Below are positions 25,123 to 57,085 of a DNA stretch of 64,000 nt, piece after piece. The notes beneath the pieces were generated by a model. That model had not been told where the DNA came from. It ran no database searches and worked only from the letters and a program-made list of their open reading frames with translations. The translations under genes were made by a program, and so were the position numbers. Position 1 is the stretch's first letter; each line of letters opens with the position of its first letter. This DNA comes from an uncultured Verrucomicrobiota bacterium (GTDB lineage: Bacteria; Verrucomicrobiota; Kiritimatiellia; CAIQIC01; Lenti-01), in contig CALKWZ010000076.1 of the NCBI GenBank assembly GCA_938003985.1, forward strand, positions 11,045-75,044. Reading direction: 5' to 3'.

Positions 25123-25153
25123 GCGGCCGCATTCTCGGGGTTGCGGGCCCCGC

Positions 25154-25201
25154 GGCCTTGCGCCGTGGGGGAGCCAACTTGGCCACCCACGGCGCAAGGC
25201 C
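25154..25201. terminator. 16-bp perfect GC-rich stem-loop between convergent genes (no U-tract)
   Basis: ggccttgcgccgtggg (25154..25169) pairs with cccacggcgcaaggcc (25186..25201) across a 16-nt loop. It lies between the malQ stop and the stop of the minus-strand gene at 25284. Confidence 0.45.
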
Positions 25202-25226
25202 GTGGGGGTGCCGATCCATCGCAAAG

Positions 25227-25255
25227 AAAAGCCCCGGCCTGCCGACCGGGGCTTT
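25227..25255. terminator. Bidirectional intrinsic terminator-like hairpin
   Basis: aaaaGCCCCGGcctgccgaCCGGGGCttt has a 7-bp GC stem flanked by an A-run and a T-run. It sits in a convergent intergenic region. Confidence 0.55.
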
Positions 25256-25283
25256 CTCATGCCGTCGCGCCGCGCGCGGAAAC

Positions 25284-25625
25284 TCAATACCAGCCGGGCC
25301 GTGGTCCGTGGGGGCGGCGATGGCAGGGCGGCGGCGGGGCATAATACCCGTAATACGGCGTCGGGGCCGGCACCGGAACCGGCGCGGGCACCGGTTGGTA
25401 GTAATAATAGACCGGCGGGGGCGGGGGCGGCGGCGGCGGCGGCGCCACGTAGACGGTTTCGGCCTGGGCCGCGCCGGCGAGCATGGCGCCGGCGATCACG
25501 CCGATCACGGCGCCGGCGAACACGTCGCCGGACCGGTGGTGGTGTCGCGCCGAAGCGGTCAGGGGCAGGGCCAGGGCGGCGGCGGCCCCGACGGCGACGA
25601 GCTTGGTGGTGAGGCTGGTTTTCAT
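25284..25625 (-). CDS. Small secreted/membrane glycine-zipper protein with Pro/Tyr-rich tail
   Basis: Signal peptide MKTSLTTKLVAVGAAAALALPLTASA, glycine-zipper segment GAVIGVIAGAMLAGAA, then PPPPPPPPPPPVYYYYQPVPAPVPVPAPTPYYGYYAPPPP. Confidence 0.5.
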   Translation of the reverse strand: MKTSLTTKLVAVGAAAALALPLTASARHHHRSGDVFAGAVIGVIAGAMLAGAAQAETVYVAPPPPPPPPPPVYYYYQPVPAPVPVPAPTPYYGYYAPPPPCHRRPHGPRPGWY

Positions 25626-25834
25626 GTCGGTTTCTCCGGGGATATTCTTTCGCTCATTCCCACAAGTCGCCGCTTCGGCGCGAAAGGTTACGCTCGCGGG
25701 GCCGGCAGCACGAATAGTCCTGCATGAGATGGTGGCGGGCGCGACCTGCGCCGAAGAACGCCATGCGACCGCAAATTTCCGTTGTGCGGGGCGGGACAGG
25801 CGAGGATGATGGTTGCCAACGCGGAGGAAATCGC

Positions 25835-27169
25835 ATGCGCATGCCGAACGTGGGACCGTCGGACGTCTTGTTCGCCTTGGAATCGAAGCCGCCGCTGCGG
25901 GTGGCGCTGGGGGCCGCCTTCCAGCATTTGCTGGCGATCTTCGCGGGGATCGTGACGCCGGCGCTCATCGTGTGCGGGCTGTGCGGGGCCCCGCCGGCGC
26001 TGACGCGCCAGGTGGCCGGGGCGTCGCTCTTCATCTCGGGCGTGGCGACGTTCATCCAGATCCACCGCTTCGGCGCCCTGGGCTCGGGCCTGCTGAGCAT
26101 CCAGGGCACGAGTTCGAGCTTCATCGCGATCTTCGCGGGCATGGCCGCGGCCGGCACGGCGCGCGGGGATTCCCCGGAGCAGATGCTGGGGCTGATGATG
26201 GGCATGGGGCTGGTCTGCGCGCTGACGGAAGTGGGCTTCAGCCAGGTGCTGCCGTGGATGCGGCGGATCATCACGCCGCTGGTGGCGGGCATCGTCATCA
26301 CGCTGATCGGGCTGACGCTCATCAAGGTGTCGGCGATGCAGATCGGCGGCGGCGAGGGCGGGACGTTCGGCGCGCCGCGCGACGTGGCGCTGGCGGCGTT
26401 CACCGCCGCGGTCGTGCTGGGGCTGAACCGGATGGGGAATCCGTGGTGCCGGATGGGGGCGCTGATGTTCGGCATCGTGGCCGGGACGGCCGTCGCCGCG
26501 CTGCTGGGCGCGGTGCGGGTGCCGCCGTGGGACGGCGCGTGGTTCCTCGCGCCGGTGCCGTTCCGGATCCCGCTGGCGTTCCGGTGGGAGTGGGCGTTGC
26601 CGGTCGCGCTGATGTATCTGGCCTCGACCATCGAGACGATCGGCGACATCACGGCGACGAGCATGGTGTCCGACGAGCCGACGGAAGGCGAAACCTACGA
26701 AAAGCGCCTCAGCGGCGGCATTTTGGCGGACGGACTGAATTCGATGCTGGCGACGATCTTCGGGTCGTTCCCGACGACGTCGTTCAGCCAGAACAACGGC
26801 GTAATCCAATTGACGGGCGTGGCGAGCCGCCGGGTGGGGCTGTGGATCGCCGTCTTCCTCATGGTGCTGGGGCTGGTGCCGGCCGTGTCGTGGGTGTTCA
26901 CGCTGGTGCCGCGCGCGGTATTGGGCGGGGCCACGCTGGTGATGTTCGGCACGGTGGCGGCGTCGGGCATCCGCCTGATGGGCGCGAACGGCATCGGGCG
27001 CAAGAGTTCGCTGGTGGTGGCGACGGGCCTGGGGGCGGGGCTGGCGGTGACGCTGGAGCCGCGGCTGCTGGCGCATTTCCCGGATTGGGCGCAGCAATTG
27101 TTCGGGTCCGGCATCATGACGGGCACGACGGCGGCGATCGGCGCGCAGGCGTTGGCCGGCAAGGATTGA
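25835..27169 (+). CDS. NCS2-family nucleobase:cation symporter (xanthine/uracil permease type)
   Basis: Start MRMPNVGPSD at 25835. Multi-TM protein with QHLLAIFAGIVTPALI and ..SFSQNNGVIQLTGVASR, typical of NCS2 permeases. Confidence 0.85.
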   Translation: MRMPNVGPSDVLFALESKPPLRVALGAAFQHLLAIFAGIVTPALIVCGLCGAPPALTRQVAGASLFISGVATFIQIHRFGALGSGLLSIQGTSSSFIAIFAGMAAAGTARGDSPEQMLGLMMGMGLVCALTEVGFSQVLPWMRRIITPLVAGIVITLIGLTLIKVSAMQIGGGEGGTFGAPRDVALAAFTAAVVLGLNRMGNPWCRMGALMFGIVAGTAVAALLGAVRVPPWDGAWFLAPVPFRIPLAFRWEWALPVALMYLASTIETIGDITATSMVSDEPTEGETYEKRLSGGILADGLNSMLATIFGSFPTTSFSQNNGVIQLTGVASRRVGLWIAVFLMVLGLVPAVSWVFTLVPRAVLGGATLVMFGTVAASGIRLMGANGIGRKSSLVVATGLGAGLAVTLEPRLLAHFPDWAQQLFGSGIMTGTTAAIGAQALAGKD

Positions 27170-27375
27170 ACGGAAGATCGCACCCGCGGGGCGCCGTTCG
27201 CTTTGTGCCGGCGCCGCATCCGCATTCGGCATCCAAACAGAATCCTAAACAACGGGCGATCTGCCGGTCTTCATTTTCTGGCGTTTTCCGCTAGACCCGT
27301 CCGGTGGGTTCCACTAGATTGGGCCTTCGAAATCTAGCGGTATTTTTCAATACGCATCGAAGAGAGGTAAATGCC

Positions 27376-27945
27376 ATGGCATCGTTCATGAAGGAACTGA
27401 AAGCGGAAATCGCCCGGCTGGCCCGGAAGGAAATCAAAAAGGAAGTCGCGCCCGTCCAGCGGATCAGCGCGTCGCGGCGCGGCATGATCGCCGACCTGCG
27501 CCGCCAGGTGGCCGCGCTGCAGCGCGACGTGGCGGACCTGCGCCGGGCCCTGGCCCGGGGCGGCCCGCTGCCGCTGGCGGTCCAGCCCGCGGAAATCGCC
27601 GCCGGCGACGACGGCCGCAAGGGCTTCTGGATCACGGGCAAGGGCGTGCGCAAGTTGCGCCTGCGTCTGGGCCTGACGCAGACTGAATTCGCGGCGCTGG
27701 CGAACGTCAGCGGCCAGACCGTCGTCAACTGGGAAGGCACGTCGGGCAAGATCCCGCTGCGCCGCAAGGATTCCGCCGCGCGCCTGCAGGAAATCCGCAA
27801 GATGAAGAAGCGCGACCTGAAGAAAGCCGCGGAAGCCAAAGCCCCGGCCAAGGCCAAAGCCAAGGCCAAGGCCAAAAAGGCCAAAGCCAAAAAAGCCAAG
27901 GCCCCGGCTCCGGCCAAGGTCGAAGCCGCCCCCAAGGCCGAATAG
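27376..27945 (+). CDS. XRE-type HTH protein with N-terminal coiled coil and histone-H1-like Lys/Ala C-terminal tail
   Basis: MASFMKELKAEIARLARKEIKK.. (coiled coil). HTH LRLRLGLTQTEFAALANVSGQTVVNWEG. Tail KKAAEAKAPAKAKAKAKAKKAKAKKAKAPAPAKVEAAPKAE. Confidence 0.7.
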   Translation: MASFMKELKAEIARLARKEIKKEVAPVQRISASRRGMIADLRRQVAALQRDVADLRRALARGGPLPLAVQPAEIAAGDDGRKGFWITGKGVRKLRLRLGLTQTEFAALANVSGQTVVNWEGTSGKIPLRRKDSAARLQEIRKMKKRDLKKAAEAKAPAKAKAKAKAKKAKAKKAKAPAPAKVEAAPKAE

Positions 27946-27970
27946 GCCGCCTTCGCCCAGCGCGAAACTA

Positions 27971-27998
27971 GCCGCACCCCCGGGTGCGGCTTTTTGTT
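27971..27998 (+). terminator. Rho-independent terminator
   Basis: GCCGCACccccggGTGCGGC followed by TTTTTGTT, 26 nt after the stop of the HTH gene. Confidence 0.7.
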
Positions 27999-28176
27999 GC
28001 CCCGGCGGATTCTTCGGACGGATTTCGATTGTCTGAAGCTGGCCCCGTTGGGGGCCGGCCATGGGCGAAACAGCCCACTCCGATACGTGGCAGCCCCGGC
28101 CTCACCGAGGCCAGCTACAACAAATCCCCCCTAGAGCATTTCCAAGAATGTCGTGCGAAGCCCTCTATGGAAGACA

Positions 28177-28246
28177 AAGACCGGGACGAGGGCGTCCCGG
28201 CTCCATTTCGATCCATCTTTGGAGCCCCCGACGCCCACGTCGGGGG
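28177..28246. repeat. Three-hairpin intergenic repeat element, copy 1
   Basis: aagaCCGGGACGagggCGTCCCGG-CTCCA..TTGGAG-CCCCCGACGcccaCGTCGGGGG. A near-identical element is present at 52654..52741. Located between convergent genes. Confidence 0.8.
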
Positions 28247-28278
28247 TTGATTGCAGCTACATGATATCTTGAACCGCT

Positions 28279-29109
28279 CTAAATCCCGCCCCGCGCCGCG
28301 CGCAGGGCGGGCAGGTAGGTTTGATCCAGGCTGTGGGGCGGCTGGCCGTCGGCCGAGGCGAATTCGATCGGTCCGCCCACGTGGCGATAGCCGAGCAATT
28401 CGGGCGGGACCTTCGTCACCACGTCGCGGCGGTTCGCGATCCGCCAGGCCGCGAGGCGCTGCCGCGCGAAATGCCGCGCCCAGCGCGCGGCGCCCGTCCG
28501 CGGCGCGGCGAAGGTGAACACCTCCAGCGCGCGGTACGGCAGGCCCCCGGTGGCGACGTCCATCGCCGCGAGCGCGGCCAAGGCCCCGCCGAGACTGTGG
28601 CCCGTCACCCGGATCCGCGACTCCGGCGTGGCGTGCGCTTCGAGAAAGGCCCGGATCGCCGGCCGGACCGATTCATAGCACCGGTGGAAGCCGCGGTGCA
28701 CGTGGCCGCCCTGCAGATCGTCGAAAACGGCGTCCCGCCGCGCGGCCATGTAGTTCGAAATCTTCTCGCCCGCGCTCTGCGTGCCGCGGAACGCGACGTA
28801 CAGGCGGCGGCCGGCGCGGGCGCAGACGCCCGCGGGGGTGGTTTCGGTGCGGGTCACGTAGCGCCGCCCGCCCTTGCCGCCCGATGCGCGGGCCGTCCGA
28901 TAGGTCAGCGTGCGCCAGAACGGCTCCTCGAAAACCAGATCCCCCAGCGCGGGGAGCGCGAACCGCATGGCCCTCGGCGGCGGCTTCCCGGCATCCGACC
29001 ACTGCTGATAAAGCCCATAGGCCGCCTCCACCAGCCGCACGCACGCCAACGCCTGGCGGACGGAAAACCCCTCCGGCAACGGCAACGCAATGGGAACGCC
29101 CCGGCTCAC
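28279..29109 (-). CDS. Class 3 lipase family protein
   Basis: 276 aa with VAFRGTQS.. and the nucleophile elbow VTGHSLGGALAALAA, typical of the Lipase_3 family. Confidence 0.8.
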   Translation of the reverse strand: MSRGVPIALPLPEGFSVRQALACVRLVEAAYGLYQQWSDAGKPPPRAMRFALPALGDLVFEEPFWRTLTYRTARASGGKGGRRYVTRTETTPAGVCARAGRRLYVAFRGTQSAGEKISNYMAARRDAVFDDLQGGHVHRGFHRCYESVRPAIRAFLEAHATPESRIRVTGHSLGGALAALAAMDVATGGLPYRALEVFTFAAPRTGAARWARHFARQRLAAWRIANRRDVVTKVPPELLGYRHVGGPIEFASADGQPPHSLDQTYLPALRAARGGI

Positions 29110-29487
29110 GGCCTCAACCTAGCCGCCTCGCCCGCCCCCCGGCAAGCCGAAACCCACCCGCCGTCCCCGCCCCCGCCGCAACCGAAACGCCGGGGTGGGG
29201 GCGCCGCGGCTCGCCACGGGCGCTCGTGATGCGACGAAAATTCCAGAATACAAACCTGTGCCGCCCCCACGAAATTATAAGACAGTAAACTTATGCGTCA
29301 TTTTGTGGAAATTTTCCGCATAACTTTCATTCAACGCTTTTACTGGTGTTCTCGCCCAATGCCTGCTAGTATCAGATTTGAGATGAAAGAAAATCCGGTT
29401 CATTCTCAAAAGACATGGATCTAGTTGCCGGAATATCTGCCAACAGGCACGGCAATAATGAGTTATAATTATTATCTTGCATAATCG

Positions 29488-29501
29488 GTATCAATTGATA
29501 C
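29488..29501. promoter_or_regulatory. Perfect 14-bp palindrome GTATCAATTGATAC immediately upstream of the toxin-like gene (candidate operator)
   Basis: Read directly. It ends 4 nt before the ATG at 29506, and AT-rich -10-like hexamers (TATAAT at 29464..29469) lie just upstream. Confidence 0.4.
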
Positions 29502-29505
29502 TCTC

Positions 29506-29859
29506 ATGAGCAGAAACTATGAGCAACCGATTCCGGCCGCATGGCGAAAAGCCGTTGTCAAGGTGCTTCGAAGCGGCGACAAGACTCGAATTATCAGCAC
29601 GGTAGAGTCGAAAAATGATTGGGAAAGCACGTTTCCGGAGAGTTGGTGGCATGACCGCCCTGAAGCCATGGCCCGGGCTTTGGATGTCGATGGCATTGTC
29701 GGAAAACATGTCACGGATATGGATCCGCCCTGCGAAGCCTATGCGTTTTGGTTCCACTACGAAAAACGACAGATGTACGGAAAAATCGGGCTCTTGCCCA
29801 ATGGCGACGTAGTCATCATCTTTTCGAGCCACGTTCCGCGAAAAGGGAAGAAATTATGA
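29506..29859 (+). CDS. Small toxin-like protein (tentatively MqsR-like) of a TA/TAC module
   Basis: 117 aa. The C-terminal ..YAFWFHYEKRQMYGKIGLLPNGDVVIIFSSH resembles the MqsR C-terminal strand pattern (..VYLKITVIHDVLIVSFKEK). It sits first in the operon, and its stop overlaps the next ATG (ATGA). The call rests on memory-based similarity only. Confidence 0.45.
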   Translation: MSRNYEQPIPAAWRKAVVKVLRSGDKTRIISTVESKNDWESTFPESWWHDRPEAMARALDVDGIVGKHVTDMDPPCEAYAFWFHYEKRQMYGKIGLLPNGDVVIIFSSHVPRKGKKL

Positions 29860-30386
29860 AGAAACGGAAAACCCCGCCTGTCCCGGGTTGGATGGCCATC
29901 ACCACGAAGCAGCCGGTGTTCATTCCCAATGCCACCGGCTACGGCGTGGCCGAAACCGTCATGCAGGAGGTTCCCGCCTGGAAGGATCCCAAGACGGGCC
30001 AAATCTACTTGGATGGAACGGCCCATGAGATTCTGGATGCGGTCAAAGCGCGGCACCTCGGAATTCTGCTGCCGGAGCAATTGCGGGATTTGCGGAATTC
30101 CATCGGGATGACCCAGAAGAAGATGGCCGAGTTGCTGCAGTTGGGGGAAAAGACCTGGACGCGCTGGGAAACCGGTGCGGAGCGGCCGTCCCGATCCATG
30201 AATCTTCTCCTGTGCGCCCTCCACGAGGGCAAAATCGATGTCGGCTATCTCCGCTCCAAGCGGCAGATGCCGGCGCTCGATGAGCTTGGACGATGGGAGA
30301 TGCCCGAACAAAAAGCAGGGGTTTCCTATCAGACTCCTAAACCAACTCTGGGAGAGCCCGATGAAAGCAAAACTGGCGCCGCTTAA
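29856..30386 (+). CDS. XRE-HTH antitoxin-like protein (MqsA-like, zinc-less) with C-terminal extension
   Basis: HTH region LLPEQLRDLRNSIGMTQKKMAELLQLGEKTWTRWETGAERPSRSMNLLLCAL parallels the MqsA HTH (..LSLTQKEAAEIFGGGVNAFSRYEKGNAQPHPSTIKLLRVL). An extra tail of about 45 aa follows the HTH (GYLRSKRQMPALDELGRWEMPEQKAGVSYQ..). Confidence 0.6.
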   Translation: MKKRKTPPVPGWMAITTKQPVFIPNATGYGVAETVMQEVPAWKDPKTGQIYLDGTAHEILDAVKARHLGILLPEQLRDLRNSIGMTQKKMAELLQLGEKTWTRWETGAERPSRSMNLLLCALHEGKIDVGYLRSKRQMPALDELGRWEMPEQKAGVSYQTPKPTLGEPDESKTGAA

Positions 30387-30846
30387 GTGCCATGGATACT
30401 TCGTTACGGGGTTGATGATTGCGGCGAATCCCGAATACGACAAAAAGAAACCGAACGCCCTGCTGTTTGGTGATCTGCAAATCGATTCGACGGCAAAGCC
30501 GGTATCCAAGAAGTTCGACGGAAGACTTTGGCAAGTCATCCTGCAGATGCAGCAGAACGTTGGGCCGGACAAAAACACGCCCTACAACTTTTCGGTCACA
30601 GTGGTGGGCCACTTCGAGGTTCATCCAAAGTATCCGGTCGGAAAAGCGCAGCAATTGGTGGAGATAAATGGCAGTTCAATTCTATACAGTTCTGCCCGGC
30701 AAATTTTAAGAGATGCCATGCACAACGGCCCGTTTCCGGCGCTTGACTTGCCGACGGTCAGCTTCTTTGATGCCGAGCCCGATTTGCCGGCGAAGAAAAT
30801 CGTAGCGGAAGCCTCGGCGAACTGCGGCGATAAAACCGGAAAATAA
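30361..30846 (+). CDS. SecB-like chaperone
   Basis: 161 aa. ..FSVTVVGHFEV..GKAQQLVEINGSSILYSSARQILRDAMHNGPFPALDLPTVSF parallels E. coli SecB ..[50 protein letters not shown]. Its start overlaps the antitoxin 3' end by 26 nt. Confidence 0.7.
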   Translation: MKAKLAPLKCHGYFVTGLMIAANPEYDKKKPNALLFGDLQIDSTAKPVSKKFDGRLWQVILQMQQNVGPDKNTPYNFSVTVVGHFEVHPKYPVGKAQQLVEINGSSILYSSARQILRDAMHNGPFPALDLPTVSFFDAEPDLPAKKIVAEASANCGDKTGK

Positions 30847-30876
30847 GGCCGCGTCCGCAATAAAAGGCCCCCCCCT

Positions 30877-33800
30877 ATGTCGAAGAGGAAAAAGCAGATC
30901 GCAAACGCTGAAGGTCAACTCAATCTGGCCCTGACGGGCGATACTTTTGCTGGGCCTGCTGAAACCAACGGCGTCTTTTCTCTCGCTTACCTGTTAAGAC
31001 AATTGGAGCAGTCGCCATCTTTCGCCGCCCAATCCGATGCGGCGGTCGCTTATGAATTGGTCTGCCGGTTGTATCGGCAACACGGCGTGGCTCTTAAAAG
31101 GCAGAATGAAGCCTTTACCTGTTCCACTTTTCTCGAACCTGTCCTGGACTCGCTCGGCTGGCATCGGATTCCCCAGCAATCTATGCCGAGCAGCATGGAG
31201 ACCCGGAAGCGTCCGGACTATTGTCTTGTCACCACTGAGCAAGCCTTCATGGAGGCATCGCGTGCCGATGCCGTGAAGTTATTTCAGCTTAGCGCCACCG
31301 TCTTGGAAGCTAAGAAATGGGGGCACCCTTTGGACCGGATGTCCTCCGGAGAAACCCCGGGTTGGTTCCCTAGCCAGCAAATCCAAGACTATTTGAATCA
31401 CGCGAAAGACGCGACGGGGCATCGGTTCTTCGACTGGGCCATCCTCACGAACGGCGACGAATGGCGTCTTTACTGTGAACAATCCGCCGTGGGGGCCTAC
31501 TTCAGTTTCCATCTCGTTCGCGATGGCCAGTTGTGTACGGAGGACGAGTTCAGGCTTTTCTTCACGCTTTTCCGGGCTGCCGCCTTTGATCGCTCGCCGG
31601 AAGGCCTTTGTTTTCTCGATTCCGTGCGCGAGCAGTCGTTGCGGGCGCAGGGCGAACTAGAGCTAAATCTACGCAAGCGCATCTTTGGCGTTCTTGAAGA
31701 CCTTGGCACTGCGTTCGCAAATCGGGAAGAAAACGGCTTGCACGAGGCTGATTACCCCAAGGTCTACGAAGTTTCCTTGGTCTTTCTATATCGCCTTTTG
31801 TTTGTTCTCTATGCGGAGAGCCGGGGGCTCCTGCCCGTTCGCGAGTATGGCGCAGGGGCGAATCGCCGTTATCTAAACGATTTTTCCTTGGCCCGCTTGG
31901 CTGGCAAGTTGCGCGACAGTTCCCATTATCAAGACAATGCGTTTTGCCAGCTATACGAGGAATTGCTGCACTTGTTTGAGCTGATTAACGGCACGTTTCC
32001 TTCGCGAAATGCGTCTCTCAAGGTCACCCGCTACAACGGCGGGTTGTTTAGTCTGCGGGCGCACGAAGAAATTGGACGTTGGCGGATCGGGGACCGGGAC
32101 TTGGCCGATATTCTCAGGCAATTGATATATGTCCAGCCGCCCGCTCGTTCCCGCGAGGCTCAACGACAGATCAGCACTCGGGAAGCGATTGATTACAGCA
32201 CGCTGGAAGTCCGCCAGCTCGGCGACATCTACGAGGGCCTGCTGGGCGCGCACTTCGAAAAAGTCGAAGATCGCCTTGAGTTGCGGAACGAGAACGGCGA
32301 AAACCATCGCTCCGGGATATTCTACACGCCCGATTGGATCGTCCAGTTCCTCGTAAACGAAACCTTGTTGCCGTTGCTGTCAGAAATCGAGCGGTCGCCC
32401 GACGTCCAGCGAGCCTTGCAGGCTCGTTCAGAGGAGCGAAAACGGGACAATTCTTTCGCGTTCGGCGTGCTCAACCTCAATCTCGTCGATCCCGCCATGG
32501 GCAGCGGCCATTTTCTGGTTCGCGCGACGGAATGGCTGGCCGACCACATCATGAGCCATCCCACGACCCAGCCGATGACGATGCAAATCATTGGTCAGGG
32601 TCAAGGCCAAATCAGCCGGGAAGAAATTATCGCGCGCGGCAAGATTCCCGTGGCCCCCGGAATTTCCCAGGAACAGGCGGAGAAGGCTTATTGGCGCCGC
32701 CGCGTCGTAGAGGCCTGCATCCATGGCGTAGATGTCAATCCCATGGCAGTCGAGTTGGCGAAACTCTCGCTGTGGCTGACTTGCATCGCGGCCGACGAAC
32801 CCCTCAATTTCCTAGACCACCACTTGCGAAAAGGCAATGCCTTGCTGTCGGTCGCCCCCGATGAGCTCAAGTTGGCGCCGGATGGACAGGAGACGTTCGA
32901 TCTCGGGGAAAGGCTTCACGACGTTCTCTCCGGCATTATCCGCGACACGCTTGCCATCGAAAGGCAACCTAGCACGGAAATGGAAGCCGTGAAGGATAAG
33001 GAACGGCTATGGAAGGATTTGAGGTTGCGGCTAAAACCTTTCCTTGATCTGTCGGACCTCTGGATTTCCATGTTGGATGGAGTGCCCCTGGTCGAGATGG
33101 AATATCTGTCCGTTGCACGTCTGTTGCTGGGCGACCAGACTCTTACAGGACCAGAAAAGCGAGATGCCAAGCGGCGCCTGGATTCCATTGCTGTAGCGCT
33201 AGCGTCGAAGAAGGCGGACCTGATGCCCTTCCACTGGCGGTTGGAATTCCCGGATGTTTTCTACGACGAAAGCGGGGAGGTATCGCCCCCGAACCGATGC
33301 GGATTCGATGCCATTCTCGGCAATCCCCCGTATGTGTCCATCCACACGGCGAAAGAGATTGGCAACCGCAAGATGCGCGATGCCTTGGAAAAACGCGCGG
33401 GCTATCTGGAAGACCTCTATGTCCATTTCACCGATCTTGGTTTCCAACTACTGCGCAAGGGCGGCGGGTTCGGGTTCATTGTATCGGACACTTTCTTTAC
33501 GCTGGCCTCCAAGTTCCGCATGCGAGAAATACTCCAGAGGAATTCGCTCGACTGGCTCGGTCAATGCGATCCCTTCGATGCCACGGTAGACGCAGCGGTT
33601 TTCGTTGCCCGCAAGCAGGTGCCCGAGGCAAACCATCGCTTCCGCTTTGTTCAAGCCAGGCCCCGCAAGCGACCCGACGGTACTCGCACCGTGCCCGATG
33701 AGAACTTGGAAAAACTGTCGCAAACCAATGCTCTTGCATGGAATGAACCCGCAACGCTGACGCCGTTCGGCGATGTCTTCCATGCCACGGTGGCCGAGTT

Positions 33801-35352
33801 GCGGCTTCATGAAATTCCGCTTTCCTTGCATGCCGCGGCCCACAAAAAGGTATTTTTCGAGCCCCGTCCTGGCACTCTGCACCTTTTCGACCGCTTCAAC
33901 GCCAATGTGAAGGAGCTTGTTGCGGAATGGTGGGAGAAGATTGAAGACTCTCGCGAATTCAGCGCCAACCTTCCTGAAATCCAAGCCTATCACCGCACCT
34001 TGCGCCCCGGCGACATCTCGCTAGTCGGGCTTGTGGCGGAAGGTGGGCAAGGAATGCGCACGGCCAACAACGCCCGTTTTCTAGCCTATCTCGACGGCAC
34101 CCCGCAGGCAGAGGAAATCAAGGAGAAGTCGCGGGCATGGTCTGCCTCTTGGCTGGCGAACGAACGGGTTGGATCAACTTTCCGCGAACTTTTGCAACAA
34201 GCGGGTGGGGACGCCGCTCGACCGACTGCCAACCGGCCCGCATGGGAAGCCGCCGTGCATGGTCTTCGCGAGCGATTCACGCCCGCCCAACTGGGCTTGG
34301 GCCGAACCTTCCTTTTCCGCATTGCGCCGCCGGACCTCGTTGCCGGGGCAGAGGATTTCGCCTATTCCTTCTTGCGCCGCAAGGCGGAACTCCTTGTGCA
34401 TTGGCAGGGACGGTCGGAATTCATGGGCTTTTGGGACGACAAGATGGAGATTGGCGGGAATTTTGTGGCCCATTCGGACTGTCGCAAGGCCAAGACCATT
34501 TCGGACGCGGATTTCTGCGAGCTTTGCCAGCACCTGCAGCTTTGGGTCAGACATGAAAACGCCGTGAGGAAACCGTCGCAGCGCATTCCTAAAGAAGCCA
34601 TAGGCTTGCGATCTAGTGAAGACTACTCCGATCCGGCTGACGCTCCGCGAATCGCCGCGATTTATAATGGCCTTTTGGGCCGCGCCCAATATGTCCCATT
34701 CCGGAAGGGGGACCCCGAAGGAAGCCGGTGGCTGGACAACGAACCGCTCTTTTGCGATTGGTCAAAATCATCTGTGGATTGGCTCTCAACAGATAATTCT
34801 GCACGCTGGCAGGGTCATCGATTCTTTTTCCTTCCAGGTGTTACATGGACCGCCGTAGCTAATCATGTCGCGCTTAAATCAAGGTTCCAAGAGCCATGCG
34901 TATTTGATGCCGATAGTATGAGGCTTACTCCGTTACCAAGCACTCTTTCGGCTGAAGCATTCGTGGCGATTCTTAACAGCGATGTCTTCAGTTACTTCAA
35001 GATGCGATTCGTTCAACACACGCAAAAGTGGGAAATCGGGAATTTGCGTCAGATGCCCATTGTGATGCCAAATAAGAGGCAACAGGACTCGCTTGCGAAA
35101 CTGGCCTCGCTTGCGATGGCCGCAAAACGGCATGAGTTTTCGGGAACATCCCCCGACAATGATTTGGTTGCGCGTGTTCGCGTAATTAGTGCGCGGCTGC
35201 GTGCGGATGGGCCAGATTATTTGCAGCCCAGCGCCCAAGGATTATTGCTGGCAGGCCCCAACGATTGTCTGGAAGTGATCGAAAAAGCCATCAACTGGGA
35301 AGCCGAAAAACTCTACGGCGTTGAAGGCCTTGGCCCATTCGACGAATTTTAA
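30877..35352 (+). CDS. Type IIG restriction-modification fusion enzyme (N-terminal PD-(D/E)xK nuclease + gamma-class N6-adenine MTase + PglX/TaqI_C-like specificity region)
   Basis: 1491 aa.
- N-terminal HsdR_N-like nuclease motifs RKRPDYCLV..VLEAKKWG..QIQDY..ILTNGDEWRLY.
- MTase motif I VDPAMGSGHFLV and motif IV ILGNPPYVS.
- C-terminal YVPFRKGDPEGSRWL..FFFLPGVTWT..ILNSDVFSYF..EIGNLRQMPIV, as seen in PglX/MmeI-like enzymes. Confidence 0.8.
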   Translation: MSKRKKQIANAEGQLNLALTGDTFAGPAETNGVFSLAYLLRQLEQSPSFAAQSDAAVAYELVCRLYRQHGVALKRQNEAFTCSTFLEPVLDSLGWHRIPQQSMPSSMETRKRPDYCLVTTEQAFMEASRADAVKLFQLSATVLEAKKWGHPLDRMSSGETPGWFPSQQIQDYLNHAKDATGHRFFDWAILTNGDEWRLYCEQSAVGAYFSFHLVRDGQLCTEDEFRLFFTLFRAAAFDRSPEGLCFLDSVREQSLRAQGELELNLRKRIFGVLEDLGTAFANREENGLHEADYPKVYEVSLVFLYRLLFVLYAESRGLLPVREYGAGANRRYLNDFSLARLAGKLRDSSHYQDNAFCQLYEELLHLFELINGTFPSRNASLKVTRYNGGLFSLRAHEEIGRWRIGDRDLADILRQLIYVQPPARSREAQRQISTREAIDYSTLEVRQLGDIYEGLLGAHFEKVEDRLELRNENGENHRSGIFYTPDWIVQFLVNETLLPLLSEIERSPDVQRALQARSEERKRDNSFAFGVLNLNLVDPAMGSGHFLVRATEWLADHIMSHPTTQPMTMQIIGQGQGQISREEIIARGKIPVAPGISQEQAEKAYWRRRVVEACIHGVDVNPMAVELAKLSLWLTCIAADEPLNFLDHHLRKGNALLSVAPDELKLAPDGQETFDLGERLHDVLSGIIRDTLAIERQPSTEMEAVKDKERLWKDLRLRLKPFLDLSDLWISMLDGVPLVEMEYLSVARLLLGDQTLTGPEKRDAKRRLDSIAVALASKKADLMPFHWRLEFPDVFYDESGEVSPPNRCGFDAILGNPPYVSIHTAKEIGNRKMRDALEKRAGYLEDLYVHFTDLGFQLLRKGGGFGFIVSDTFFTLASKFRMREILQRNSLDWLGQCDPFDATVDAAVFVARKQVPEANHRFRFVQARPRKRPDGTRTVPDENLEKLSQTNALAWNEPATLTPFGDVFHATVAELRLHEIPLSLHAAAHKKVFFEPRPGTLHLFDRFNANVKELVAEWWEKIEDSREFSANLPEIQAYHRTLRPGDISLVGLVAEGGQGMRTANNARFLAYLDGTPQAEEIKEKSRAWSASWLANERVGSTFRELLQQAGGDAARPTANRPAWEAAVHGLRERFTPAQLGLGRTFLFRIAPPDLVAGAEDFAYSFLRRKAELLVHWQGRSEFMGFWDDKMEIGGNFVAHSDCRKAKTISDADFCELCQHLQLWVRHENAVRKPSQRIPKEAIGLRSSEDYSDPADAPRIAAIYNGLLGRAQYVPFRKGDPEGSRWLDNEPLFCDWSKSSVDWLSTDNSARWQGHRFFFLPGVTWTAVANHVALKSRFQEPCVFDADSMRLTPLPSTLSAEAFVAILNSDVFSYFKMRFVQHTQKWEIGNLRQMPIVMPNKRQQDSLAKLASLAMAAKRHEFSGTSPDNDLVARVRVISARLRADGPDYLQPSAQGLLLAGPNDCLEVIEKAINWEAEKLYGVEGLGPFDEF

Positions 35353-35374
35353 CGGCCACTGATGACCGGAGATG

Positions 35375-35942
35375 TTTATAGGCGCGCAGCTCATCGAGGG
35401 GGAAGTCGCCAGGGGTGCGTTCGTAGGTCCAGAAGGCAGAGTCGTTGAGGGGGGCGAGTTTGTACGAGGTGAAATTGCGCGATGCTGTTGCCGAGTGTAT
35501 ATCAATCCCGCCTGACTGCATTATCAAGGTAATCAAGGATTCTCCGATTGGTATATTTGCCGGCAAGCTCGAACAGGTGCATGCCGCGCACGTATTCAAC
35601 GATTTCGCCGGTTGAGAAGGGCGGAGTTGCCTGATCTTCACAATCGACTTGCCAGTCGATGCCTTCGGTTGTTTGGAGTCAGATGGCGATCATCTCGTAC
35701 TGCTCCAGCTTCTCGACGTGGGCAAGAATGAGGGCATCGATCGTATGCTCGTAGACGTCCCACAAGACGGACTGCTCGTATTGGATTTGGACGCAAACCT
35801 CTTCCCACGTGTTTTTGAGACCCGTGTCGTCGCCAAGTGCAAGGGAATCGGTCAATTTTCGTAGCTCACGAGCGGTTTTTCGGGCGATGGCGGACGACAC
35901 CCGCAGGGCCAACGCGCGCACAACCTGTTCTTCGACATTCAA
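35375..35942 (-). pseudogene. Degraded gene: in-frame TGA plus a +1 frameshift, with a RAMA-like C-terminal remnant paralogous to the neighbouring gene
   Basis: The reading frame from TTG 35942 (..NVEEQVVRALALRVSS..EKLEQYEMIAI) hits TGA at 35679..35681. It then continues in the same frame as LQTTEGIDWQVDCEDQATPPFSTGEIVEYVRGMHLFELAGKYTNRRILDYLDNAVRRD, stopping at 35502. A shifted frame continues IDIHSATASRNFTSYKLAPLNDSAFWTYERTPGDFPLDELRAYK. This aligns with the C-terminus of the 35945..36637 protein (VRRDGTIRYAGKLYNSPSLAA..NGWEFWNYQRAPGDWVPLDALRS). Confidence 0.4.
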
Positions 35943-35944
35943 CG

Positions 35945-36637
35945 CTAGCTTCTCAGCGCGTCGAGGGGGACCCAGTCGCCGGGGGCGCGCTGGTAGTTCC
36001 AGAATTCCCAACCGTTGCAGGTGGGGCGTTTGCAGGCGGCGGCGGCGGCGAGCGAGGGCGAGTTGTATAGCTTGCCGGCGTAGCGGATGGTGCCGTCGCG
36101 GCGCACGGTGGCCTTGAGGATCTTGCCCTTGAAATGGGCGCGGAGGGGAAACGCCGTGGTGACGTATTTGGCGAGGGGCGGGGTGCGGCCATCTTTCTGT
36201 TCCTTGGCGGCTTTGCGGCGAGCGGGATCGGGCGCGGTGAGCATGTCGAAAACGGAATCTTCGAAATCCCGCTTCATGTCGCGCAGGAAGATGGGGCGGA
36301 GGTCGCTGGACCGGGCGAATTGTCCCTTCTGCTTGTTGCCGGCGGGCTTGACGGTGCGGAGGATGAGGGCTTCCAGCTCGCGCAAGTGGCGGTCGCCGAT
36401 GGTGAGGTAGACGGAGAAGCGGTCCCAGGAGTCGGCGTGACGGTCGCGGAGGTGCTGCTTGAGGCGGTTGCGGAGGTTGGTGGCGAGGCCGACGTAGTAG
36501 AGCTTGCCCTTGCGGTAGAGGACGTAGATGCCGTGGCGCCCCCGCACGTACTGGCGGATGATGTTCTGGTATTCCTCGAGGGCTGCGCGGGAGATGTTTT
36601 CGAGGTGCTGGCAAACGAGCTGGGCGTTGCGTTTCAT
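35945..36637 (-). CDS. GIY-YIG nuclease-domain protein with C-terminal RAMA/DUF4357-like domain
   Basis: GIY-YIG core RHGIYVLYRKGKLYYVGLATNLRNRLKQH. C-terminal ..GKLYNSPSLAAAAACKRPTCNGWEFW resembles the restriction-enzyme/methylase-associated (RAMA) domain signature. Confidence 0.65.
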   Translation of the reverse strand: MKRNAQLVCQHLENISRAALEEYQNIIRQYVRGRHGIYVLYRKGKLYYVGLATNLRNRLKQHLRDRHADSWDRFSVYLTIGDRHLRELEALILRTVKPAGNKQKGQFARSSDLRPIFLRDMKRDFEDSVFDMLTAPDPARRKAAKEQKDGRTPPLAKYVTTAFPLRAHFKGKILKATVRRDGTIRYAGKLYNSPSLAAAAACKRPTCNGWEFWNYQRAPGDWVPLDALRS

Positions 36638-36754
36638 ACGGATGAGAAGTCTAGCGCGCCGCGCGGATGCTGAAAAGCGGAAACCGCGTGTCGCGATTCC
36701 CGGAGAACGAGCTCTCGCGGTGGCAACGAGGGGAAGCGGTCGGGAGGCTCAGAA

Positions 36755-36847
<93 letters not shown>

Positions 36848-36937
36848 GCAAAATCACATCAACTCATATCACAGAGCTTTCCCCGCCCCGGCCAAGGCCG
36901 GGGCGAGGCCTCGCCCCGCTGTCATCAGCGGGGCGGG

Positions 36938-36976
36938 CAAGCGGGCGCGATCGGCCACTCCGCCACCTCTCCGCAA
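36938..36976 (-). repeat. 39-bp perfect duplicate of the 5' half of tRNA-Ser (plus 4 nt of 5' flank)
   Basis: caagcgggcgcgatcggccactccgccacctctccgcaa occurs at 36813..36851 (inside the tRNA) and again at 36938..36976. The 86 bp between the copies is GC-rich hairpin sequence. Confidence 0.9.
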
Positions 36977-37077: not shown

Positions 37078-37163
37078 TGGTACCGGAGAAGGGACTTGAA
37101 CCCATACGCCCGTGAAGGCGCCAGATTTTGAGTCTGGTGCGTCTGCCATTCCGCCACTCCGGC
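37078..37163 (-). tRNA. tRNA-Leu (anticodon CAA), CCA encoded
   Basis: The reverse complement reads GCCGGAGTGGCGGAATGGCAGACGCACCAGACTCAAAATCTGG..GGGTTCAAGTCCCTTCTCCGGTACCA. Anticodon loop CTCAAAA. Long variable arm. Confidence 0.9.
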
Positions 37164-52653: not shown

Positions 52654-52741
52654 AAGACCGGGACAACCGGGACGAGGGCGTCCCGGCTCCAAACCGCCGC
52701 CGGATTTCCGCCTTTGGAGCCCCCGACGACCCCGTCGGGGG
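52654..52741. repeat. Three-hairpin intergenic repeat element, copy 2
   Basis: Same element as 28177..28246, with an extra CCGGGACAA duplication and a longer middle loop. It begins 6 nt after the stop of the Memo-AMMECR1 gene, in a convergent intergenic region. Confidence 0.8.
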
Positions 52742-55245: not shown

Positions 55246-55680
55246 TCAGGGGGCAGGGGACCCGGTATTTTGCGACGGGCACCCTGGACCCGCTGGCGCG
55301 GCATTTTTCCTGCGGTGGACGTAATTCTTCGTCACTCGAAACAGAAGTGCGGCCGAGATGCACCAGAGCAGGGTTGCGCCAGCCAAGCCGCCCCACGTCC
55401 GCGGATCGAGTTCCGGCCGGCATGAGACAAGCCGGGCGCCGACGACGGGCGCGGCAATGAAAACAGGACCAAAGAGCAGCCACATCCCGACCAGGACAAT
55501 CGTCTTCGGCGGACCGGAAACGGCCTGCCGGTAGGCAAACCCTTCCGACTGAATCCGCTCCCACGGCCCGGTAACGGACATGGCGCTGAGCGGCGCCCCG
55601 CATTTCACGCAGAAATCGCGCTCCGCCTCGTTTCTCTCAAGACAGTGCGGACAAGCGATTCGACTTTCGGGTTCGCTCAT
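55246..55680 (-). CDS. Zinc-ribbon membrane protein
   Basis: N-terminal CPHC..x..CVKCG zinc ribbon followed by hydrophobic helices. Confidence 0.55.
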   Translation of the reverse strand: MSEPESRIACPHCLERNEAERDFCVKCGAPLSAMSVTGPWERIQSEGFAYRQAVSGPPKTIVLVGMWLLFGPVFIAAPVVGARLVSCRPELDPRTWGGLAGATLLWCISAALLFRVTKNYVHRRKNAAPAGPGCPSQNTGSPAP

Positions 55681-55769
55681 TTTCTTTTTTCCTATCGAAC
55701 TCCACCTTCACCGTTTTCAGTCTGCGTCTACGCGGGGTGAAATACGGTACGAGGCGTGGTTGGGTGTTC

Positions 55770-56306: not shown

Positions 56307-56328
56307 GATCTTCGCTTCACGTCACGGG

Positions 56329-57021: not shown

Positions 57022-57029
57022 CAGTTTTA

Positions 57030-57068
57030 TTCACCCTCCTTCAAGGAGGCTTTACGTGGCGGGGTGAA
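57030..57068 (-). promoter_or_regulatory. 5'-leader hairpin embedding the Shine-Dalgarno of the DUF4263 gene
   Basis: The minus-strand RNA would read UUCACCCCgccacguaaagCCUCCuugaaGGAGGGUGAA. The GGAGG that serves as the only obvious RBS can pair with CCUCC (5-nt loop), and the flanks UUCAC/GUGAA extend the stem. Confidence 0.4.
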
Positions 57069-57085
57069 TTTTCCTGAGTGGCAAA

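Follow-up and report, generated by a model that had tools for sequence, protein, structure and literature searches.

We consider it probable that the interval described here represents what a chromosomal defence hotspot located just downstream of a tRNA-Ser(GGA) gene carries as its present cargo, a locus, in which a toxin-antitoxin-chaperone (TAC) module and a Type IIG restriction-modification (R-M) enzyme, swapped via the flanks, form a layered defence. The cluster of horizontally acquired anti-phage genes beside the tRNA gene is real. The host, an uncultured bacterium of high G+C, is of the Kiritimatiellia/Verrucomicrobiota type, and the window is the whole 64-kb stretch of its DNA that was analysed. 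The slot is a known kind of defence hotspot, of which a few parts are new.

The composition of the block was compared with that of its flanks. In 500-nt windows from 29250 to 35950 the G+C content is 0.46-0.62 (mean 0.554), against a mean of 0.684 (sd 0.05) in the rest of the window, and the shift at 29.2 kb is abrupt. GC3 also drops, from 0.81-0.93 in the flank genes to 0.57-0.65 in the TAC trio and the 1491-aa enzyme gene. These values, with G+C passing from ∼0.68 to 0.55 at 29.2-35.9 kb, bear out the lower-G+C island proposed by a sequence-only reading of this DNA, and the departure from the flanks is strong. The GC3 of the GIY-YIG+RAMA gene is 0.83, which is host-like, and high G+C is therefore regained at that gene, as the same reading had it. 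The cargo (G+C 0.52-0.58) resembles trio-bearing contigs found elsewhere (0.50-0.56) rather than the host (0.68). A second patch of the window, at 55.5-57.5 kb, is as low in G+C, so that the low-G+C stretch is not unique.

The closest island-free relatives, L003 (CstA 94% identical) and L007 (CstA 84%), have the gene order permease-HTH-tRNA-Ser-tRNA-Leu-CstA with only ∼200-260 nt separating tRNA-Ser from the HTH gene, which represents the empty site; homology to the window stops past the HTH gene (alignment A2). Because the HTH gene adjoins tRNA-Ser in both, 27.95-36.76 kb is an indel, and the 8.8-kb block (27946-36756) is not core synteny. The limits first proposed, 29.2-36.0 kb, are therefore right as to an indel next to tRNA-Ser and too narrow as to its extent, since the full indel also includes a lipase_3 gene of host G+C. 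Nor is the island a single unit: the recently exchanged part is narrower (29110-35501) and leaves the GIY-YIG+RAMA gene and its 146-aa partner outside the low-G+C acquisition. The left junction (27946-28278) consists of the HTH-gene terminator followed by non-coding DNA with a dispersed repeat (28180-28246), which recurs at 52666-52741 of the window and in L005. All relatives used here are metagenome contigs of uncertain taxonomy, and "strain" or "species" relationships are approximate for that reason. The proteins of the proposed island match conflict families and no housekeeping family in Pfam, NCBIfam and PADLOC, in agreement with the conflict-system reading; the 117-aa protein has no family match.

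The exchanged cargo (6.4 kb, 29.11-35.50 kb) lies between two anchors. The left one is a class-3 lipase gene (28279-29109, minus strand; Pfam Lipase_3 1.7e-28; GC3 0.89, host-like), absent from L003 and L007. The right one is a gene of 230 codons for a GIY-YIG+RAMA protein (35945-36637, minus strand; Pfam RAMA 2.9e-14, GIY-YIG 1.2e-6; PADLOC PDC-S14 1.2e-17), a call already made from the open reading frame and now supported by Pfam. By its domains the protein is a candidate methylation-sensing (Type IV-like) nuclease. Its gene shows 95% nucleotide identity to that of L042 and 88% to those of L050-L060, and L061 and L063, the latter of G+C 0.50, likewise have a homolog next to the trio. The 146-aa partner gene (35502-35942, minus strand), which forms the right-hand limit of the variable cargo, begins 2 nt past the GIY-YIG+RAMA stop in L050-L060. 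It is a pseudogene here (alignment A6), with a single TGA at codon 88 (35679-35681) in place of a nearly invariant Trp, the intact homologs P0161-P0169 having 134-151 aa. Homology between the window and L050-L060 runs out at 35484-35501. Beyond it lies the relic of a RAMA-gene 3' end (35379-35500, minus strand), ∼45 codons with no start, whose minus-frame translation reads ...SAFWTYERTPGDFPLDELR; it is 76-78% identical at the nucleotide level to the RAMA tails of GIY-YIG+RAMA genes, matches residues 208-230 of the GIY-YIG+RAMA protein by tblastn and does not occur at this position in L050-L060. The "decayed RAMA-tailed gene" of the sequence-only reading thus shows decay and a RAMA relic as claimed, but resolves into two separate things, the 146-aa gene with one nonsense codon and the relic. 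The GIY-YIG+RAMA and 146-aa pair is a conserved anchor and does not belong to the low-G+C acquisition.

Between these anchors other genomes carry Type I or helicase/endonuclease/methylase systems. In L042 the trio (97% nucleotide identity) and the GIY-YIG+RAMA gene are the same, with HsdR-S-M between them, homology breaking at window positions 30851 and 35955. L056 has in common the GIY-YIG+RAMA gene, the 146-aa gene and the lipase-HTH flank (80% nucleotide identity over window 27436-29108, ending at the lipase start codon), and its cargo is ResIII/RE_endonuc/N6_N4_Mtase without a trio. A convergent Type I system, again without the trio, lies next to the GIY-YIG+RAMA/146-aa pair in L050-L055, and tRNA-Leu and tRNA-Ser adjoin the pair in L051, L057, L058 and L060. 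Two footprints of replacement were found: L035 retains 22 codons of the IIG start before a Type III cargo, and the RAMA relic was left next to the IIG stop codon in the window. The cargo boundaries fall at anchor gene ends, i.e. past the SecB-like stop, past the 146-aa stop and at the lipase start.

The trio (toxin-like, HTH antitoxin and SecB-like), whose gene calls hold, is encoded on the plus strand behind an A+T-rich leader (29110-29505, plus strand; G+C 0.52), in which homology to L042, L043 and L044 begins at 29301-29305. A perfect 14-bp palindrome, GTATCAATTGATAC, is found at 29488-29501 with the toxin ATG 4 nt further on; it is present once in the window and exactly conserved at the same place in 25 fetched loci, and it is a probable operator of the antitoxin. 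The 117-aa product of the first gene (29506-29859) is of a family that forms 149 clusters at 50% identity; it matched no model of Pfam, NCBIfam or PADLOC and no PDB sequence. Its AF2 model (pLDDT 93.5) has an MqsR/RelE-like predicted fold: the best Foldseek match is MqsR 3hi2_B (prob 0.97, TM 0.53/0.61, E 0.03, weak by this E-value), followed by RelE, YoeB and HigB2, and the matches agree in kind. The model thus designates the protein as a putative MqsR/RelE-type toxin. The second gene (29856-30386), overlapping the first by 4 nt, encodes a 176-aa MqsA-like HTH antitoxin (HTH_31 8.7e-9; MqsA_antitoxin 5.9e-4; TIGR03830 52 bits, under the cut-off of 61.8), devoid of zinc CxxCG motifs; an "MqsA-like" class of TAC antitoxins has already been described (PMC3581621). 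Past the HTH it bears a ∼50-aa C-terminal tail which, in alignment A7, is variable and contains aromatics, whereas the core is conserved. This poorly conserved tail is a candidate chaperone-addiction segment. The third gene (30361-30846), overlapping the second by 26 nt, encodes a 161-aa SecB-like chaperone (Pfam SecB 1e-7, 32.4 bits, cut-off 26), and a SecB-like gene is also third in L034, L035, L037, L042, L045, L046, L063-66 and L073.

The fourth gene (30877-35352, plus strand) encodes a 1491-aa single-chain Type IIG-like R-M enzyme (Pfam Eco57I 1.1e-24), and the earlier assignment to a Type IIG fusion stands. PADLOC gives REase_MTase_IIG (5.4e-46) and DrmMI (2.1e-87), both restricted to the methylase region. 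The nuclease and methylase motifs are intact, with PD(113-114)...EAK(144-146), DPAMGSGHF at 538 and NPPY at 816. The enzyme is 85.5% identical to that of L034, over residues 33-945 it shares 31-33% identity with Eco57I/TaqI_C-type enzymes of plasmids, and no relative was found among solved structures at E<=1e-3. Its start lies 30 nt past the SecB-like stop. The cargo is thus a set of four tightly packed, co-directional genes, operon-like and of donor-like composition (G+C 0.55). A restriction-type gene (Type IIG, Type I, Type III, GmrSD or helicase-nuclease) adjoins the trio directly in 10 of the 12 loci with readable flanks, a count which overstates the independent observations because several trio loci are close mutual relatives.

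In the defence that we propose, the Type IIG enzyme would form a first layer by methylating host DNA and cleaving unmethylated incoming DNA. The HTH antitoxin would bind the conserved palindrome at the trio promoter and neutralise the MqsR-fold, RNase-type toxin, while its C-terminal tail would make it reliant on the SecB-like chaperone. In a second layer, infection would divert the chaperone, free the toxin and so be aborted; the TAC module would additionally penalise loss of the locus. The GIY-YIG+RAMA nuclease, whose 146-aa partner is inactivated here, may constitute a third layer. TAC systems are indeed antiphage, with the chaperone as phage sensor (PMC9519451; 10.1101/2024.02.24.581848).

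A different role of the trio deserves attention, although we give it about one chance in four: it could act mainly as a module for addiction to, or control of, the R-M cargo, making the cassette stable by killing cells that lose it, and not as a phage sensor. The R-M gene being 30 nt downstream of an autoregulated operon, the trio would time R-M expression as controller (C) proteins do. In agreement with this, the R-M genes lie immediately downstream of the trio and share its orientation, with a gap of ∼30 nt in the window, L034 and L042 for two different R-M types; no terminator-like site was found on the plus strand between trio and IIG start; the operator-like palindrome is confined to the trio promoter; and the trio moves with R-M genes across hosts of widely differing G+C. 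A general likeness of R-M control to toxin-antitoxin systems is also the subject of a review (PMC3874152). However, the restriction-type gene is upstream of the trio in L045, L046, L063 and L073, so that a fixed promoter-to-cargo order is not universal; L064 and L037 have the trio without an adjoining R-M gene; the R-M cargoes of L056 and L050-L055 occupy the slot without the trio; and the tested TAC systems are abortive-infection defences. The phage-sensor and addiction/control roles are compatible with each other.

Arrival and replacement of the cargo most likely occurred by recombination in or beside the conserved flanks and not through a resident integrase, as the shared anchors suggest. 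The alternative that the block is a decayed integrative element, which a recombinase of the serine or tyrosine kind brought into tRNA-Ser site-specifically and from which this recombinase and the distal att repeat later disappeared, is unlikely, at roughly one chance in five; inter-strain differences would then be separate integrations and not flank recombination. The tRNA-Ser(GGA) gene (36757-36847, minus strand; ARAGORN; Rfam tRNA 52.7 bits) does point its 3' end toward the block, as had been noticed, and this end is the right junction; ∼100 nt present downstream of the tRNA in L002, L003 and L004 are missing in the window (alignment A1). The trio+IIG cassette of L034 is preceded, 197 nt upstream, by a 600-aa large serine recombinase, a candidate recombinase outside the window. 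Another large serine recombinase lies by the same tRNA flank in the host relative L006, an IS30-type transposase stands at the left edge of the trio in L042, and in relatives the stretch from the tRNA to the GIY-YIG+RAMA gene holds two additional partial copies of tRNA-Ser. With the tRNA 3'-end junction, these copies and the L006 recombinase, a past site-specific integration would fit too. On the other hand, the absence of integrase and of a direct tRNA repeat reported by the sequence-only reading was confirmed in 27.9-36.8 kb, where non-recombinase genes fill all coding space and no tRNA 18-mer recurs with up to 3 mismatches, and tblastn detected no serine-recombinase or IS30 homolog across the 64 kb. 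Moreover, the cargo borders are anchor gene ends and not tRNA-like sequences, identity between the recombinases of L034 and L006 is only 34%, the L006 gene is at least 300 nt from the tRNA, and the pseudo-tRNA copies are on the tRNA side of the GIY-YIG+RAMA gene, outside the swapped cargo. The Ser-Leu spacer also holds a 125-nt insert (36852-36976), which consists of GCTTTCC, a GC hairpin and 39 nt that perfectly copy the 5' half of tRNA-Ser (repeat D1). This insert is old and is no scar of the island: L009 has the same structure (95% identity over 132 nt), and the hairpin-interrupted pseudo-tRNA-Ser copies of L051 and L042 are related to this relic. Finally, an assembly or binning chimera of two organisms' DNA, which an uncultured source and the abrupt change at 29.2 kb might suggest, is extremely improbable, as the independent assembly of Logan contig L001 (SRR3330205) is identical across both junctions, the same 1491-aa enzyme is present on four contigs, and in L042 and L061 the same high-G+C GIY-YIG+RAMA gene is independently linked to this trio.

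The components of the locus resemble several known systems. Like the Type IIG enzymes of the Eco57I-MmeI kind, the R-M protein combines in one polypeptide an N-terminal PD-(D/E)xK nuclease motif, an N6-adenine methylase of the gamma class that carries NPPY, and an extended C-terminal part, and no separate methylase or specificity gene lies nearby. It differs from them in its length, 1491 aa being far more than in MmeI or Eco57I, and in that PADLOC scores it best against DrmMI, a DISARM methylase, with the match confined to the methylase core. The anticodon nuclease PrrC is encoded within the EcoprrI Type I R-M locus, whose R-M enzyme itself keeps it inactive. The toxin of the trio may likewise be a latent RNA-targeting toxin embedded in an R-M locus, which could back up a defeated R-M system, but it has its own antitoxin and chaperone, and nothing points to an interaction with the R-M enzyme. 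GIY-YIG-RAMA fusions have been proposed as N6-methyladenine-sensing Type IV restriction enzymes (PMC11037411); these fusions and PDC-S14 have the identical two-domain order and an R-M-rich neighbourhood, whereas the conserved 146-aa partner, inactivated in this genome, is unmentioned in that work. The trio shares with the TAC systems (Mtb HigBA-SecB^TA, E. coli MqsRAC, HigBAC and CmdTAC; PMC5105189, PMC3581621, PMC9519451, 10.1101/2024.02.24.581848) the order toxin, HTH antitoxin, SecB-like chaperone, overlapping genes and the extra C-terminal antitoxin tail, and its antitoxin agrees with the class that Sala et al. call "MqsA-like, partial MqsA domain". In contrast, its toxin is unrecognised by MqsR, HigB, HicA and ART sequence models, the predicted fold alone being MqsR-like; the two zinc CxxCG motifs found in MqsA are missing from its antitoxin; and the characterised HigBAC and CmdTAC systems of E. 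coli are prophage-borne, whereas the trio is beside R-M genes. For the locus as a whole, the closest analogue is the E. coli Immigration Control Region, i.e. defence hotspot 36 (yjiA-yjiN), together with the leuX-anchored hotspot 37 (PMC12707154). The present locus belongs to another phylum, its anchors are the lipase gene and the GIY-YIG+RAMA pair, its toxin-antitoxin partner is a three-gene chaperone-dependent module packed against the R-M gene, and exchange by homologous recombination is here suggested by the shared anchors. It shares with both a variable locus between conserved anchors with alternative R-M families (PMC12707154), a Type IV-type nuclease and toxin-antitoxin genes alongside and an empty site in some relatives, with the Immigration Control Region the lack of a resident integrase, and with hotspot 37 the position at a tRNA gene.

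The sequence-only reading had placed a lower-G+C defence island beside a tRNA-Ser gene; this finding is real and its interpretation is correct in outline. Measured in 500-nt windows, the G+C content was 0.46-0.62 (mean 0.554) from 29250 to ~35950 and 0.68-0.74 on both sides, the mean of the remaining window being 0.684 (sd 0.05). The signal was stronger in GC3 than in overall G+C, with values of 0.57-0.65 for the trio and the gene of the 1491-aa enzyme and of 0.81-0.93 for the flank genes. High G+C came back, as described, at the GIY-YIG+RAMA gene, the GC3 of which (0.83) is host-like. The tRNA-Ser(gga) gene (36757-36847) is on the minus strand, so that its 3' end faces the block, and tRNA-Leu(caa) comes next at 37078-37163. 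The block is not unique in the window, because a second patch at 55500-57500 is as low in G+C (down to 0.46). One of its genes (56329-57021, minus strand) codes for a Shedu-type nuclease of 230 aa (Pfam SduA_C, 8.2e-14); the patch also contains a lipoprotein-like ORF of 178 aa and the gene of a zinc-ribbon membrane protein, and is probably another small accessory defence insertion. Elsewhere in the window, a 1957-aa ORF (17594-23467) combines endonuclease/exonuclease/phosphatase and lamin-tail domains with thrombospondin type 3 repeats and six MBG repeats, and apparently codes for a giant nuclease-like protein that is secreted or located at the surface. The flank ORF at 23721-25727 is probably in the wrong frame, a GH77 gene being found there in L001, an independent Logan contig.

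The locus was compared with 32 related loci anchored on CstA, from MAGs labelled Kiritimatiellia, Verrucomicrobiota and Lentisphaerae. Two of them, L003 (CstA 94% identical) and L007 (84%), contain permease, HTH, tRNA-Ser, tRNA-Leu and CstA genes in this order, with only ~200-260 nt between the HTH gene and tRNA-Ser, and are devoid of the lipase, the trio, the big enzyme and the GIY-YIG gene; they represent the empty site. By alignment, the left junction is located directly after the terminator of the HTH gene left of the block and the right junction at the 3' end of tRNA-Ser (alignment A1). The segment 27946-36756 is thus extra relative to L003 and L007, in agreement with the proposed indel beside tRNA-Ser. 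About 100 nt located 3' of the tRNA and common to the related loci L002, L003 and L004 are missing in the window. A chimera is unlikely, since L001 shows the same arrangement as the window at both junctions. At the same spot, the relative L009 carries an HsdM gene (N6_Mtase, 2.8e-69) in a lower-G+C stretch and L006 a large serine recombinase. The HTH gene left of the block has a long Ala/Lys/Pro-rich low-complexity tail (AKAKAK..., 27800-27945) that its orthologs in L003 and L007 lack. The distance from tRNA-Leu to CstA is 7-8 kb in L002, L006, L008 and L009 versus ~100-300 nt in the window, L003, L007 and L012, which suggests that the tRNA pair is flanked on its other side by a second variable site.

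The flanks of the unit are shared between loci at 80-95% nucleotide identity and enclose different defence genes. In L042, the trio (97% nucleotide identity to window 29305-30851) and the GIY-YIG+RAMA gene (95% to 35955-36658) are separated by a complete Type I system (HsdR-S-M), with an IS30-type transposase on the left and tRNA-Ser-derived sequence at the contig end. In L050-L060, the GIY-YIG+RAMA gene and the adjacent 146-aa gene are 88% identical at the nucleotide level to window 35484/35501-36658, and in L051, L057, L058 and L060 this pair adjoins tRNA-Leu and tRNA-Ser. Past the stop codon of the 146-aa gene, L050-L055 carry a convergent Type I system, and L056 and L058 carry ResIII/RE_endonuc/N6_N4_Mtase genes. 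The other end of L056 consists of the lipase_3 and HTH genes (80% nucleotide identity to window 27436-29108), so that L056 represents this same slot, occupied by a third cargo that lacks the trio. The cargo is therefore Type IIG plus toxin-antitoxin-chaperone (TAC) genes in the window, Type I plus TAC in L042, Type I in L050-L055, and helicase/RE_endonuc/methylase in L056 and L058. From these contexts, the exchanged unit of the window is 29110-35501, anchored by the lipase gene on the left and by the GIY-YIG+RAMA/146-aa pair on the right. Conserved flanks, alternative defence cargo in relatives and an empty site (L003/L007), the traits of an Immigration Control Region (ICR), were all found.

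The main rival explanation is that the block is a decayed integrative element, in keeping with a junction at the tRNA end, the serine recombinases of L006 and of the trio-bearing locus L034, and the extra pseudo-tRNA-Ser copies of relatives. Insertion at the tRNA 3' end (alignment A1) and atypical composition are indeed those of a tRNA island, but the window has neither a tRNA-proximal integrase gene nor a distal direct repeat of the 3' part of the tRNA. No integrase or recombinase was present in the block, the tRNA-proximal gene being GIY-YIG+RAMA, and no serine-recombinase or IS30 homolog was found in the window, tyrosine integrases outside the block being covered less than exhaustively. Within 27000-36700, no 18-mer of the tRNA occurred with ≤3 mismatches; on both the missing integrase and the missing left-border repeat, the sequence-only reading holds. 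The boundaries of the cargo moreover coincide with the ends of the anchor genes, which also speaks against a decayed element and leaves anchor-bounded exchange as the preferred reading. An att-like pair, GCTACARCAAATCC, at 28114 and 37051 was not significant, at least 2 matches being obtained in 7 of 100 shuffles.

The only tRNA-derived repeat that was found reproduces 39 nt of the tRNA-Ser 5' half perfectly (36813-36851 and 36938-36976), on the other side of the tRNA. It belongs to 125 nt (36852-36976) that are extra in the tRNA-Ser-tRNA-Leu spacer relative to L002, L003 and L004 and that consist of GCTTTCC, a GC-rich hairpin and the 39-nt copy; the insert resembles what is left of a tRNA-Ser copy whose anticodon loop had received a hairpin. 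The repeat was rejected as an integration scar of the island, because the same insert is kept in the distant relative L009 (2808-2938), which makes it old, and because hairpin-interrupted pseudo-tRNA copies form a wider class that includes it. L051 has two degenerate extra copies of tRNA-Ser (~385-535 and 790-993) between the true tRNA-Ser and GIY-YIG+RAMA, and others occur in L050, L052-L055 and L042 (9440-9590). GC-rich hairpins break up every copy at three fixed positions, namely the acceptor/T-stem junction, the T-loop and the anticodon loop, and an 80-aa GIY-YIG ORF (Pfam, 2.3e-10) lies between the two copies. Duplicated att sites, insertions of a small repeat element or some function could account for these copies. 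Another repeat, ~65 nt long, dispersed and with a hairpin inside it, was observed at 28180-28246, just downstream of the lipase gene, at 52666-52741 and in the related contig L005 (4595-4671); a CRISPR-DR9 Rfam match at 28221-28257 (E 0.027) falls in it and is probably spurious.

Family scans confirmed the GIY-YIG+RAMA protein (35945-36637, minus strand), which matches the PADLOC candidate PDC-S14 and had no match in the plasmid collection. A minus-strand ORF begins 2 nt past its stop codon, is broken by one TGA and is followed by a RAMA-like tail in another frame. This had been taken for one decayed RAMA-tailed gene; the decay stands, the single gene does not. Homologs of the reconstructed gene are intact proteins of 134-151 aa that cover the N-terminal part only, and the TGA occupies the position of a nearly invariant Trp (alignment A6), so that the stretch holds two features. 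One is a 146-aa pseudogene (35502-35942, minus strand). The other, at ~35379-35500 on the same strand, is a RAMA 3' relic of ~45 codons, with 76-78% DNA identity to the tails of GIY-YIG+RAMA genes. A single ORF joining the N-terminal domain to the RAMA tail is ruled out, since the intact homologs end at 146 aa.

The largest gene of the cargo (30877-35352, plus strand) codes for a 1491-aa Eco57I-type methylase fusion (Pfam Eco57I, 1.1e-24; PADLOC REase_MTase_IIG, 5.4e-46). A PD...EAK nuclease motif (113-146), the methylase motif I DPAMGSGHF (538) and NPPY (816) are intact, so that nuclease and N6-adenine methylase motifs occur in one polypeptide, as expected for the Type IIG fusion that had been recognized. 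Residues 33-945 are 31-33% identical to plasmid-borne, single-chain enzymes of the Eco57I/TaqI_C type, and a sequence search of the PDB with the protein returned nothing. Its top PADLOC scores were for the DISARM methylase DrmMI, over the methylase core (residues 477-873) only, and the genes of 27.9-37.2 kb include no DrmA (helicase), DrmB (DUF1998) or DrmC/D/E. With the BREX-1 PglX model of NCBIfam, the protein reached 94 bits (cut-off 500) in a match restricted to residues 1269-1419, and no BREX partner is adjacent. In the absence of DISARM or BREX partner genes, the protein is best called, on its motifs, a solitary Type IIG-like enzyme.

Upstream of it, three plus-strand genes code for a 117-aa putative toxin (29506-29859), a candidate Xre-type HTH antitoxin with a partial MqsA match (29856-30386; HTH_31, 8.7e-9) and a SecB-like protein (30361-30846; Pfam SecB, 32.4 bits for a gathering cut-off of 26), the family scans supporting the earlier antitoxin and SecB-like calls. 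The genes overlap by 4 and 26 nt in the toxin-antitoxin-SecB-like order of TAC modules, and the same order was found at 12 further loci at least. The NCBIfam equivalog models of housekeeping SecB scored far under their cut-offs, as expected for a diverged SecB^TA. The antitoxin reached 52 bits against TIGR03830 (cut-off 61.8). Having a single cysteine, it lacks the two CxxCG motifs of the N-terminal zinc domain of MqsA, and its ~50 residues beyond the HTH (123-176) form a variable tail with aromatic residues (alignment A7), a candidate chaperone-addiction (ChAD) extension. By its sequence, it fits the 'MqsA-like' class of TAC antitoxins described by Sala et al. (PMC3581621).

No match to the toxin was obtained in Pfam, NCBIfam, PADLOC or PDB sequences, nor in the plasmid or phage collections. 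A word-indexed search gave 11 close clusters and an exhaustive profile search extended the family to 149 representative clusters, all of ~110-125 aa. Neither the window protein nor any of 96 members matched Pfam at E≤0.01, and the family profile found nothing among PDB sequences. A structure model built on 96 sequences (pLDDT 93.5, pTM 0.86) had E. coli MqsR as best PDB fold match (3hi2_B; prob 0.97, TM 0.53/0.61, E 0.03), followed by RelE, YoeB and HigB2; all E-values were weak (~0.03). This model replaced one on 12 sequences (pLDDT 77.7) which gave only meaningless ketosteroid-isomerase-like matches. The toxin does not match the MqsR sequence family, the resemblance being in the predicted fold only, and can be read from the model as a remote MqsR/RelE-fold family without a sequence model.

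A perfect 14-bp palindrome, GTATCAATTGATAC, is located at 29488-29501 and ends 4 nt ahead of the toxin ATG. It is present once in the window. In 25 fetched loci, among them some whose toxins share only 50-60% identity, it recurs in the same position without a single base change, which points to a candidate antitoxin operator. A promoter/terminator scan gave counts no higher than in shuffled sequence. In L067-L072 (e.g. L068, 7960-8324), toxin homologs that are 56% identical keep the exact upstream palindrome without an adjoining antitoxin or SecB-like gene. Their neighbours are chalcone-isomerase-like, AMP-binding/acyltransferase and beta-lactamase-family genes, and they are apparently orphan copies.

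The metagenome scan was seeded with the narrower toxin alignment A3, the wide alignment A5 being too diverse as a seed. In L034, a large serine recombinase of 600 aa is followed by the trio (61-64% amino acid identity) and by an enzyme of 1493 aa sharing 85.5% identity with the 1491-aa enzyme of the window. In L035, a remnant of 22 codons from a Type IIG start (MPRKRNQSSTEGQLNLALAG...) separates the trio from the Mod and Res genes of a Type III system and is a footprint of cargo replacement. The trio stands with Type I genes and GIY-YIG+RAMA beside housekeeping genes in L061, between an upstream Eco57I/TaqI_C giant and a downstream GIY-YIG+RAMA homolog in L063 (G+C 0.50), and ahead of an N6_N4 methylase in L065. 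Upstream of it are a helicase with a NOV_C nuclease domain in L073 and L046 and a GmrSD fragment in L045; DUF1156 and DUF499 genes are downstream in L073. L064, with MFS and GDSL-lipase genes, and L037, with a DUF4268 gene, are exceptions. A restriction-type neighbour was thus present in 10 of the 12 readable loci, several of which are close relatives of one another, so that the count does not represent independent events. The G+C of the trio-bearing contigs (0.50-0.56) matches the cargo of the window and differs from its host.

The Type IIG enzyme would methylate host DNA for protection and cut incoming DNA. By analogy with tested TAC systems, in which phage proteins titrate the SecB-like chaperone (PMC9519451; 10.1101/2024.02.24.581848; PMC5105189), the trio would be a chaperone-dependent abortive-infection and addiction module. 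GIY-YIG+RAMA may act as a putative methylation-sensing nuclease, a role which is for GIY-YIG-RAMA proteins a proposal and not a tested function (PMC11037411). Exchange of the cargo would take place through recombination at the anchors or inside them. A single joint reading, which we consider rather improbable, sees in the un-modelled MqsR-fold TAC trio more than a neighbour of restriction-modification (R-M) genes, namely a portable front end that is dedicated to R-M cargo of interchangeable type. Trio and R-M gene would then be co-transcribed from one promoter under the invariant GTATCAATTGATAC operator, and the module would control the establishment of R-M in a new host or guard the R-M enzyme, the toxin being freed in the guard version once restriction is disabled by a phage; these cassettes would have the GIY-YIG+RAMA/146-aa pair as their second recurrent partner.

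These results do not overturn current ideas, and their worth is in annotation and in the choice of candidates for layered-defence experiments. With them, the anchor-bounded type of R-M exchange hotspot, of which the enterobacterial ICR is the best-known case, is extended to an uncultured lineage of the Kiritimatiellia/Verrucomicrobiota type. They also provide a TAC toxin family (~150 clusters) that is overlooked by current defence-finding models and has a candidate operator conserved without change, a physical pairing that recurs between this TAC module and Type I, IIG and III R-M systems, and a conserved two-gene GIY-YIG+RAMA/146-aa unit that tracks R-M cargo as well. The parts are of known kinds, namely TAC, Type IIG and GIY-YIG-RAMA; the un-modelled toxin family with its candidate operator, the tight recurrence of the trio-R-M pairing and the GIY-YIG+RAMA/146-aa pair as a recurrent R-M neighbour are new. 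Among described systems, another analogue is the hotspot at the leuX tRNA (PMC12707154), and the closest one is the E. coli ICR, an integrase-less variable locus between conserved anchors in which alternative Type I families occur with Type IV enzymes and toxin-antitoxin genes (PMC12707154).
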